A stretch of DNA of 64,000 bases from Escherichia phage MiataMamis. Location: the sequence record PP925834.1. The stretch is one strand, 5' to 3'. A program made the translations under genes and the position numbers. A model generated the notes under the pieces. That model saw only the letters and a program-made list of their open reading frames with translations. It did no database searches and had not been told where the DNA came from. Shown piece by piece: positions 44,034 through 45,064 of the stretch. Numbering within the stretch: position 1 is the stretch's first letter; every line of letters begins with the position of its first letter.

Positions 44034-44206
44034 TTTATTTTCCTCCCCTTGTTGGGTATCTCTTCTTCCTGATTCTTTTATACTACTTCCCAGGGCCTGG
44101 CGCAACCATTTTATAACTTTCCTCCCTGGTCCGGTCGGACATACCAGCCTGGCCCCGCCAGGCTGCAGCGGTTGGCGCACCTGGTTAGAAAATTTTTTGA
44201 AAAAGT

Positions 44207-44235
44207 GTTGACAGCGGCCCCGCCAGGTGGCATAA
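44207..44235 (+). promoter_or_regulatory. strong extended -10 promoter driving plus-strand transcription into ORF-free island
   Basis: TTGACA-N17-TGgCATAAT; GGCCCCGCCAGG occurs at 44160 and 44215. Confidence 0.6.
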
Positions 44236-44250
44236 TGCACTCATCGAAAG

Positions 44251-44284
44251 GACGGCAGGCACCGGTGACGGGGGAGACAACCAC
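44251..44284 (+). repeat. 34-bp conserved element, copy B1
   Basis: ACGGCAGGCACCGGTGACGGGGGAGACAACCACC, about 10 nt downstream of predicted start of 44207 promoter. Confidence 0.7.
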
Positions 44285-44404
44285 CGGGGATGGGCGCTAT
44301 ATAAAATGAGAACGGTTATCATTATCGTCTAAAAATTTATGCGAAAAATCCTTGCTTTCTTTGTCCTGCGTGATACTATAATAACAAGCCGGGGCAACAG
44401 GGGC

Positions 44405-44430
44405 CGGGAGACAAACACCGGGCCTGCCCG
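44405..44430 (+). repeat. partial copy B2 of the conserved element (3' half)
   Basis: GGGAGACAAACACCGGGCCTGCCCGT, about 3 mismatches to the 3' part of extended copy A; its GCCTGCCCGT can pair with ACGGCAGGC of B1. Confidence 0.55.
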
Positions 44431-44569
44431 TTATTTAGCAAACGAGAATGATTATCATTCAAAATTCTAAATGAGAACTCCTCGCATTTAATAAATTTAA
44501 TTAGCACGCTAATTACACTCCGTAACAATTTACTATAAAATAGTATCCACTAAAATATTCCCGTATAGA

Positions 44570-44760
44570 AATTTTAAAAATCCATTTCTGAAAACGAAAA
44601 ATCGATTTCGTCCCTAAAAATTTCAGGCCTAGATCCGGAACGATTTCCAGAAAATCCGATTCAGAAAACGAAAAACAGATCGAGTACTGAGAAATTTATC
44701 GAGAAAAATTTTCAGAAAATCCAAGCCCTGAAATGAAAAGTAGATCGAGTACCTGGAAAG
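44570..44760 (+). repeat. imperfect ~25-bp direct repeats and AAATCC motif cluster
   Basis: CTGAAAACGAAAAATCGATTTCG, CAGAAAACGAAAAACAGATCGAGTAC, CTGAAATGAAAAGTAGATCGAGTAC; GAAAATCC/AAATCCATTT recur through 44570-45030. Confidence 0.55.
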
Positions 44761-45064
44761 CTGCACCGCAACTTCAAGATAGTGGTTAGATTGTTACCAT
44801 AGAAGGTCAAGGGTAAGTGGAGGAAGTTCTAGTAGAGGGAGGTTAGCATGTGTGGGAAATCTATAATGGTGGCCTGGAATATGGTGCAAACGATAGGATG
44901 AGTTATTCAGCTTGTCGCGCCTACTCTGAAAAATCCATTTTAGTTTTCGATCCATTTTCTGATTTTCTAAGAATTTTAAAATATCCGGCCCGGTGAAATA
45001 TCAAAAGGAGGAAATCCATTTTAGAAATCCCCCTTATACTTGATATGCCAGGAATTTTCAAGTA

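Follow-up and report, generated by a model that had tools for sequence, protein, structure and literature searches.

The DNA analysed here, a 64,000-nt stretch of Escherichia phage MiataMamis (PP925834.1; referred to as the window), contains at approximately 44106-45064 an island without protein-coding genes whose architecture recurs across two subfamilies of phages. The phage belongs to the genus Vequintavirus and is an rV5-like E. coli myovirus. Both the non-coding status of the island and the conservation of its architecture are established with high confidence. A cis-acting control region or an origin-like region is the most likely interpretation of the locus and is favoured over a structured RNA gene. 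In its specific form, this interpretation describes the island as the Vequintavirus version of an ancient non-coding control region common to Vequintavirinae and Stephanstirmvirinae, which would act mainly in cis at the DNA level through Fur-gated early transcription into an origin-like zone; as judged from sequence comparison, this is plausible rather than probable. A preliminary description of the same DNA had proposed a regulatory or structured RNA or, alternatively, an iteron-bearing origin. An origin-like or regulatory locus is indeed the best class for the island, because it is conserved and non-coding, has promoters directed against the flanking genes and carries iteron-like repeats, whereas the structured RNA that had been derived from a long stem is not supported.

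Coding potential and conservation were assessed in an alignment of ten Vequintavirus versions of the island (85-97% identity). No open reading frame (ORF) is kept across the ten, in agreement with the earlier claim of about 1 kb without a credible ORF. The left border was placed at about 44106 because the left neighbouring gene has its own promoter immediately before this point (Table 1); a 125-aa ORF reaching 44240 is an over-extended form of this 56-aa gene. Depositors' annotations of the island disagree and show different ORFs, different strands, or no ORF at all. A hidden small protein gene would have to be either a 91-109-aa minus-strand ORF (44130/44180-44458, ORF198 of rV5) or a 48-aa plus-strand ORF (44850-44996). 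The former is open in eight of the ten relatives and annotated in rV5, FV3 and FFH2, and a plus-strand ORF with its end at 44996 or 44962 is present in all ten. However, both the window and one relative (L157) have interruptions in the minus-strand ORF, which starts inside one of the box palindromes described below without a ribosome-binding site and is missing from other genera that retain the DNA elements. Similarly, in FV3, YP-6 and A135 a 1-nt indel shifts the frame of the plus-strand ORF that ends at 44996, and L157 has stops in this frame. A hidden gene is considered very improbable.

Conservation in homologous phages is evident: the island is found in 113 Vequintavirus records, and conservation is higher in its central modules than in the flanking genes. 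The part comprising the second hairpin module and the adjacent boxes (44381-44500) matches on its own about 117 further records at 72-86% identity, from Mydovirus, Seunavirus, Certrevirus, Phapecoctavirus and others. The syntenic site holds the same architecture in other genera of Vequintavirinae and Stephanstirmvirinae. The shared order, always on one relative strand, is often a small plus-strand gene, followed by a promoter (Pa), an element termed RNA-a, a second promoter (Pb), a hairpin termed RNA-b, one to four boxes and a third promoter (Pc). Downstream of Pc, three units of ~70 bp, each ending in GATCGAG(A/T)(A/C)C, are followed by a variable stretch and an arm with CCATTT and AAATATC. 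Mydovirus, Seunavirus, Certrevirus, Phapecoctavirus and phages of Serratia or Acinetobacter all share the succession of promoter, hairpin, boxes, promoter, three iteron units and AAATATC arm. RNA-a is missing from Vequintavirus (no nhmmer match), which has two RNA-b-type modules in its place. A protein-anchored search for additional loci returned only two.

The promoters are arranged in tandem on the plus strand. Each of the two main ones, both of the sigma-70 type, opens a module in which a GC-rich hairpin and a palindromic box of 19 bp follow. The near-consensus extended -10 promoter of the preliminary description is present, although its coordinates had been off by one (P1, Table 1), and its direction is opposite to that of the flanking genes. 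With a score of 11/12 and the extended -10 element, it is the top plus-strand site of a promoter scan across 42.5-46.5 kb. The -35 hexamer is invariant in ten Vequintavirus genomes, the -10 hexamer is CACAAT in eight of them, and the spacer is similar to that of the Pa promoters of other genera. A second tandem promoter, P2, had been overlooked; it is nearly invariant within Vequintavirus and is the orthologue of Pb. The possible weak promoter P3 is moderately conserved and occupies the site of Pc, a clear TTGACA promoter in other genera. Across at least six genera, promoter hexamers and spacing are kept while the spacers are unrelated. This conservation was taken as the strongest evidence at hand for real promoters, and P1 and P2 are very probably active. 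A relic element further upstream is similar to the 3' hairpin of RNA-a, and the P1 spacer is repeated in its core, GGCCCCGCCAGG. The relic is probably dispensable, because it is partly deleted in FV3 and YP-6. A minus-strand terminator inside P1, flagged by the scan, was rejected as thermodynamically weak (z=+0.49).

Downstream of each of the two promoters, the island carries palindromic boxes that resemble operators of Fur. The palindrome GAATGA-tta-TCATTC noted previously is present as GAATGAttaTCATTC at 44446-44460, and its Fur-box character had escaped notice. The site of the Fur dimer is GATAAT-N-ATTATC, and the classical 19-bp box is GATAATGATAATCATTATC (PMC4676285, PMC4506495). The phage boxes have the consensus AATGAGAAT(G/C)ATT(C/A)TCATT, i.e. 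the form GAGAAT-N-ATT(A/C)TC, and share with Fur operators the 19-bp AT-rich palindrome and the 7-1-7 or hexamer geometry, with 15-16 of 19 positions matching the classical box in this island. In the 64 kb, box A alone agrees with the Fur consensus with at most three mismatches (0.00 expected), and boxes in relatives have one mismatch to the 15-bp core TGATAATnATTATCA. Boxes B1 and B2 form the most conserved 40 bp of the island (identity 0.99), and their spacing recurs in other genera.

A matrix built from 30 phage boxes only was used to scan ~26,000 positions of E. coli K-12 (NC_000913, 606000-632000). The top six matches are all located within the Fur-controlled intergenic regions fepA-fes, fepD-entS and fepB-entC, i.e. 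the phage matrix recovers the ent-fep operators. A further likeness to Fur operators is the 6-bp offset of overlapping boxes in other phage contigs. Within the window, all boxes scoring at least 14/18 (n=5) are found in this island or in a second ORF-free island at 30.5-33.1 kb; in rV5, six of the seven strong boxes are located in its two ORF-free islands. The commonest box variant combines one GAGAAT half-site with one GATAAT half-site. Because such half-site changes are uncompensated, the boxes are regarded as DNA sites and not as RNA hairpins. The boxes are assigned to the Fur-box motif class with high confidence, and Fur itself is slightly more likely than not to bind them. No report of Fur boxes in lytic phage genomes was found in the literature. 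Other binders were compared by hand on the basis of their consensus sequences and were rejected: KdgR agrees at 6/9 half-site positions versus 8/9 for Fur, ArgR differs by a spacing one base shorter, and IHF, Cra and MetR fit poorly.

The three repeats downstream of the boxes had been described as imperfect 25-bp direct repeats. They are real but larger, namely AT-rich units of 62 nt with a GC content of 32-38%. The last two units end in GATCGAGTAC, at 44678 and 44743, 65 bp apart. The units also carry GAAAATCC, GAAAACGAAAAA and A/T palindromes; in relatives, these palindromes are of the GAAAAATTTTTTC type. The 138 kb of rV5 contain three copies of GATCGAGWMC, two of them in the island, and every genus has two to four same-strand copies at distances of 65-78 bp. 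The AAATCC motif cluster of the preliminary description was recovered as AAATCC(A/G)ATT at 44578, 44652, 44931 and 45012. In the variable spacer, a G>C skew of +0.34 to +0.46 is maintained in all ten Vequintavirus genomes although identity is 0.69-0.89, and the spacer looks G-rich in the Serratia-phage relatives, too. The right arm is partly an inverted copy of the iteron units (repeats I1, D6), and AAATATC clusters are found at the same place in all genera. The island thus has at least three oriented copies of a short motif beside AT-rich DNA, as is typical of iterons, and the phage encodes its own polymerase, primase-helicase and DNA methyltransferase upstream. A replication origin in the iteron zone is suggested by these features but is rather doubtful.

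The island can be compared with two classes of known origins. Transcription-activated origins include the T7 primary origin (tandem promoters and an AT-rich stretch), T4 oriF and oriG, RNA II of ColE1 and the ori transcript of lactococcal phage c2. Similarly, the tandem promoters of the island aim into non-coding AT-rich DNA, the predicted transcript is non-coding, and the G-rich non-template strand downstream would favour an RNA-DNA hybrid. In contrast, the promoters of the island are of the host sigma-70 type, iterons and boxes for a host regulator are interposed, and the G skew is genus-specific. Iteron origins (lambda ori, P1 oriR, plasmid oriV) share with the island the oriented copies of a short motif, regularly spaced and beside AT-rich DNA; GATC is part of the island motif, and the phage has a gene for a DNA methyltransferase. 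The spacing of 65-78 bp differs from the classical ~20 bp.

According to the proposed mechanism, host RNA polymerase would initiate at the tandem early promoters P1 and P2, against the flanking genes, and a GC-rich hairpin element would begin each transcript. Each transcript would meet one or two Fur-type operators ~60-110 nt downstream. Fe2+-Fur on these boxes would gate the transcription passing through and would also act on the third promoter just downstream. Transcription that passes would enter the AT-rich array of three GATCGAGTAC iteron units and the G-rich spacer, which together would serve as a transcription-activated, origin-like initiation zone comparable to T7, T4 oriF/oriG and ColE1. 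Its firing would be tied to the iron status of the host.

A number of observations weigh against this mechanism. The island is not unique, since the second ORF-free island bears the same boxes. Unlike classical Fur operators, the boxes do not overlap the -35 or -10 elements of P1 and P2 but are located ~+60 to +110 from the predicted starts and, in relatives, ~-55 to -100 from the next promoter. Other differences from known Fur operators are their presence in a virulent phage, where they do not precede iron genes, and their arrangement every 29 bp. The boxes also consistently have G at the third hexamer position (GAGAAT) where the Fur consensus has T, and because of this systematic exchange another protein could bind them. 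In contrast to iteron origins, the island has no adjacent or enclosing initiator gene, the RefSeq 'replication initiation protein' being rV5 ORF79 at 65.3 kb, 51 kb away. It also lacks DnaA boxes, which occur in the window at chance level. The G skew is not retained in all genera, being absent from Seunavirus and Mydovirus, and would fit equally a C-rich Rho-loading site on the leftward transcript or an RNA-DNA hybrid behind rightward transcription. Finally, the hairpin element has just three copies.

The 34-nt element reported downstream of P1 is present, again shifted by one position (44252-44285); its sequence is ACGGCAGGCACCGGTGACGGGGGAGACAACCACC and not ACGGCAGGCACCGGTGACGGGGGAGACAACCACCACC. 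It is repeated in inverted orientation at 34353-34386 with 0 mismatches (0 expected by chance), where a third copy of the hairpin had been overlooked. With a profile of the RNA-b element, three copies and no more were identified in the window (units A, B and C); the entire rV5 genome likewise contains only these three. Unit C contains the intact hairpin ACGGCAGGC...GCCTGCCTGT (34335-34392, minus strand; nhmmer match 34385-34335) and, unlike units A and B, runs along the gene direction. Unit A has a weak local fold (z=-0.97). Unit B keeps the 3' arm of unit C with a rearranged 5' arm, folds with -24.7 kcal/mol (z=-2.46), and is conserved in Mydovirus, Seunavirus, Certrevirus, Phapecoctavirus and Serratia phages. 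P168, downstream of unit C, is given in the supplement of the rV5 paper.

In the preliminary description, a stem enclosing about 160 nt had been formed from ACGGCAGGC (44252-44260) and the complementary GCCTGCCCGT (44422-44431). The complementarity of 9 bp with one bulge exists. It is explained as the 5' arm of unit A combined with the 3' arm of unit B, because unit A shares the 34 nt of unit C without its 3' arm and unit B retains this arm. The covariation and Rfam checks that had been suggested for this stem were both negative. Seven of the nine pairs are invariant, the sole variation (CC to GG at 44423-44424) breaks two pairs in three of the seven distinct relatives, no compensatory change is seen among these seven, and the covariation score is 0. 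Rfam yielded no family, i.e. only chance-level matches (whole window searched at gathering thresholds, the region at E<=10) and none in the relatives. For the local RNA-b hairpin across genera, RNAalifold predicted a 6-bp outer stem with a covariation term of +0.08 and several broken pairs; changes in the outer stem are mainly one-sided (G-U/G-C/A-U), and folding z-scores are modest (-1.0 to -3.5). We conclude from these comparisons that the hairpin element is real and under selection, with loop and 3' flank conserved as sequence.

Promoter-proximal leader RNA elements are known as nut boxB in lambda and P22 and as put in HK022. They resemble the phage element in having a GC-stemmed hairpin with a purine/A-rich loop (GACAAA) right after early promoters. 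In contrast, the phage hairpin has three copies only, two of which are aimed at non-coding DNA, and no boxA or N-like gene was identified. Two other comparisons were discarded: for ToxI-like repeats (type III antitoxin, phiTE), no ToxI 10-mer was found in the phiTE locus and no toxin gene follows, and for mimicry of CRISPR repeats (I-E, I-F), only short chance-like overlaps were obtained.

Table 1 Features of the non-coding island and related loci in the window. Identities refer to the comparison within Vequintavirus
Feature	Position	Strand	Description
P1	44208-44236	+	TTGACA-N17-TGgCATAAT; -35 at 44208-44213, -10 hexamer 44231-44236; predicted start ~44243
P2	44352-44379	+	TTGCTT-N16-TGaTACTAT; weak -35, extended -10; predicted start ~44386
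P3 (possible)	44512-44541	+	ATTACA-N16/18-TATAAA/TAAAAT; weak, score 9/12
Relic element	44139-44192	+	ACATACCAG[..AGCCTGGCCCCGCCAGGCT..]CCTGGTTAGAA; repeat family D3
Hairpin unit A	44252-44297	+	nhmmer E=1.8e-8; first 34 nt identical to unit C; local 3' arm degenerate
Hairpin unit B	44389-44431	+	nhmmer E=2.3e-14; loop GAGACAAACACC conserved, 3' arm GCCTGCCCGT
Unit C region	34335-34430	-	terminator with -35 in loop, TTGCAA-N16-TATACT promoter, intact hairpin, then P168
Box A	44305-44326		AATGAGAACGGTTATCATT; Fur register 44308-44326, 16/19
Box B1	44441-44459		palindrome core 44446-44460; Fur register 44444-44462, 15/19
Box B2	44470-44488		29 bp start-to-start from B1
Iteron units	44559-44620, 44633-44694, 44698-44759	+	AT-rich, three of 62 nt; repeat family D1
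Variable spacer	44760-44925		plus-strand G>C skew kept, no conserved ORF
Right arm	44925-45035		ATCCATTTY at 44933, 44950, 45014; AAATATC at 44979, 44996
Identity, central part	44140-44500		mostly 0.86-1.0; 0.78 at 44180-44199
Identity, iteron units			~0.8-0.99; last unit 0.76-0.81
Identity, right-arm core			0.97-0.99
Further Fur-type boxes (second island)	31513, 31629, 31647 (31513-31668)		same arrangement in rV5 104982-105134
Left flanking gene	43863-44033	-	56 aa; matches phrog_21957
Promoter of left flanking gene	44105->44077	-	TTGCGC-N17-TATAAA; read from sequence; true left edge of island
DNA polymerase	53653-56430	-	leftward
Primase-helicase	56489-58567	-	leftward

Apart from a cis-acting control region, P1 and P2 could make short trans-acting RNA-b hairpin RNAs, whose loop GAGACAA(A/C)CACC would recognise a target of the host or the phage by pairing or binding, with boxes and repeats being secondary. 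The promoters are located directly upstream of the conserved ~55-nt element, the loop is nearly invariant across genera, the G-U/G-C/A-U changes of the outer stem work only on the plus-strand RNA, and the fold of unit B (z=-2.46) points in the same direction. Moreover, the locus encodes a structured RNA in relatives, as RNA-a of other genera shows two compensatory pairs. Such a small-RNA locus is nevertheless unlikely: the element has no match in Rfam, its covariation term is ~0 with several pairs broken, unit A folds no better than shuffles, neither hairpin is followed by a clear intrinsic terminator in the scan, and sequence is more strongly conserved than pairing. The 600 bp of conserved iterons would also be left unexplained. 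The iterons are equally in excess of what is needed if the island is an insulator or terminator zone between two leftward early-gene blocks. In this case the GC hairpins would be bidirectional terminators, the C-rich leftward RNA (44925->44760) a Rho-loading site, and convergent P1 and P2 together with bound protein would halt read-through. The upstream gene ending at 45065 has no intrinsic terminator after it, the next leftward gene has its own promoter (44105->44077), and unit C is likewise situated between a terminator and a promoter. In all ten relatives, the leftward transcript over 44760-44925 would be C-rich and G-poor despite sequence drift, which is a known signature of Rho utilisation sites. 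However, a terminator needs neither 1 kb, three iteron units and four other motif arrays nor strong antisense promoters; the minus-strand hairpin inside P1 is unstable (z=+0.49), and the skew is missing in several genera that keep the remaining architecture. An insulator is likewise judged unlikely.

If the boxes are the actual function of the island and the rest is unrelated, they may act as a decoy. Six high-affinity boxes would titrate Fur as the genome replicates and derepress iron uptake for the iron-dependent ribonucleotide reductases of the phage. It is well known that multicopy Fur boxes titrate Fur, which is the basis of the Fur titration assay. Under the phage-box matrix the natural ent-fep operators are further from the consensus than the boxes, which are restricted to non-coding DNA, and rV5 encodes class I and anaerobic ribonucleotide reductases. 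On the other hand, about six boxes per genome face a cellular Fur pool of thousands of molecules, the effect would set in late during infection, and the fixed position of the boxes between hairpin and promoter in every genus is left unexplained, so that a decoy appears quite improbable. Even less likely, and hardly to be expected, is a site for DNA entry or anchoring at which protein-bound palindrome arrays would pause or tether the incoming genome like the injection-stop signal of T5. The T5 feature holds five of the same boxes beside the calculated shear point, and both regions are long, conserved, untranslated and repeat-rich. Two-step injection, however, is not known for rV5-like phages. 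The island also lacks the paired DnaA boxes that characterise the T5 region, and no homologue of T5 A1 or A2 was found in the window and none of A2 in rV5. Moreover, the island is internal to the rV5 record and not terminal.

The relationship to T5 is nevertheless specific at the level of the boxes. In T5 (NC_005859), five Fur-type boxes are located at 9552, 9587, 9610, 9656 and 9691 (span 9552-9710). All five lie inside the annotated injection-stop feature (9140-10149), and the array adjoins the calculated shear point (~9618 in the coordinates of another record). This region (Repeat Region 3, left terminal repeat) and the island are alike as long conserved untranslated, repeat-dense DNA with an array of AATGAGAATCATT(A/C)TCATT boxes. 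In contrast, the T5 region is located in the terminal repeat and has paired DnaA boxes and large inverted repeats, whereas the island is without DnaA boxes and has its own promoters and GATCGAG iterons; the flanking genes are not shared by the two phage groups. Davison's analysis of T5 lists DRC and 'pal' repeats, assigns no binder and does not mention Fur. T5 A1, A2 and other pre-early proteins had no phmmer match in the window, and A2 or A2-like proteins had no match in rV5.

The same motif, often in arrays of three to nine boxes, is also found in intergenic DNA of many unrelated viral contigs, and a 15-mer scan of viral contigs mostly returned the same extended motif. Because the boxes are common to unrelated phages and no shared phage protein was found, a host factor is the economical explanation. 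It is conceivable, if speculative, that Fur-type operator arrays represent a shared, so far unrecognised building block of long untranslated regions in unrelated virulent phages (rV5-like and phAPEC8-like myoviruses, T5-like siphoviruses, environmental contigs). They would recruit Fur or a protein of the same specificity into a nucleoprotein structure, which here would gate early non-coding transcription and origin firing and in T5 would coincide with the injection pause.

Several further occurrences of the boxes were observed. In T5, a perfect TGATAATCATTATCA at 228-246 falls within the 3'-terminal part of dmp. A longer box array is found at 7326-7580 in a T5-like contig (L066), beside DnaA boxes. 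Arrays of three to nine boxes are present in the metagenome contigs L011, L070, L090, L131, L147, L077/L154 and L138, and the metagenome arrays are often adjacent to genes for terminase or placed where a block of early or replication genes begins. In contig L144, an RNA-b-like module and boxes are located in a 1.4-kb non-coding stretch beside a ParA-like gene.

The individual elements of the island are of known kinds (promoters, operators, iterons); what is new is the way they are combined, the occurrence of a hairpin module in three copies and the connection with the T5 region. Phages of the rV5 type are in wide use against E. coli O157 and in collections of phages, and the island may provide a first handle on their origin and early regulation. 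It is conserved in both subfamilies, and its annotation is inconsistent or missing. Should Fur bind, a strictly lytic phage would have wired a metal sensor of its host into its early programme. Comparable wiring is known from cyanophages for phosphate and nitrogen regulators. For T5, the question arises whether the injection-stop palindromes are Fur sites, which would be a concrete hypothesis for a 60-year-old puzzle.

The second, larger ORF-free island, which had also been overlooked, is located at 30540-33083, where rightward and leftward gene blocks converge, and is equivalent to the gap between ORF163 and ORF164 of rV5. This 2.6-kb gap is probably the stretch labelled 'non-coding' in the rV5 paper, which does not discuss the present island. 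In addition to Fur-type boxes (Table 1), the second island has clusters of AAATATC and a number of promoter-like sites. The 20-nt sequence GCCATGCCATTCGTTTGCAT is repeated exactly at 32170 and 32401; tandem repeats of the TATTCACGC type are found at 32026-32093 and an 18-nt perfect inverted repeat at 32236/32370.

RNA-a, the element that Vequintavirus lacks, was found in ~227 phage records of other Vequintavirinae and Stephanstirmvirinae genera. It comprises ~95 nt behind its own sigma-70 promoter, with a core GCCACCCCACGGCGAAAAGGCGGGGCTAAC, a variable hairpin and GGAAGGTGGATCGCCGG; examples are L002:1290-1400, L003:1300-1420, L004:1360-1470 and L005:1320-1440. RNA-a is almost never annotated and has no Rfam match. 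Two of its pairs show compensatory changes (GC 8/AU 6 and CG 11/GC 3), and RNA-a is a candidate for a new family of structured RNAs. Just upstream of RNA-a, other genera encode the small plus-strand gene with its own promoter (L005:1097-1279, L171:467-658, L168:687-896), which has no counterpart in the window. The leader of this gene contains a GAGACAAC-like motif that resembles the hairpin loop.

ARAGORN detected no tRNA gene in the window or in relatives. In OY978796.1 (L002), genes for tRNA-Lys, tRNA-Ile and tRNA-Met are annotated at 878-1573, where ARAGORN finds no tRNA. Most coding sequences of this record are flagged as pseudogenes and its feature coordinates appear to be shifted; the tRNA-Met label covers the homologous DNA.

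With respect to the genome as a whole, position 44034 of the window corresponds to about 116.6 kb in rV5. Leftward genes fill ~33-64 kb and encode RIIB, a Dda-like helicase, a DNA methyltransferase, the primase-helicase and the DNA polymerase, followed by many small uncharacterised ORFs; the genes flanking the island are small ORFs of uncharacterised function as well. The region 43900-45200 matches 116 phage records and is 96.9% identical to phage FFH2 from 44117 onward. In most relatives, the left gene and the first ~80 bp of the island (43863-44117) are replaced by unrelated sequence, and FV3 and YP-6 additionally lack 44099-44146, so that the island has a mosaic junction at its left edge. 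The rV5 paper lists 33 sigma-70 promoters, none of them on the plus strand at the island, and its skew analysis followed only the direction of transcription and located no origin. A description of the island or a transcriptome of Vequintavirinae was not found in the literature. The segment 44340-44500 has no match in the E. coli chromosome, and the only match in a plasmid search was a Vequintavirus genome deposited as a plasmid, namely the 'E. coli plasmid' CP057073.1 (137.6 kb). Similarly, about 16 records of 'Campylobacter phages' (MG0656xx, some labelled UNVERIFIED) are near-identical to E. coli Vequintavirus genomes.

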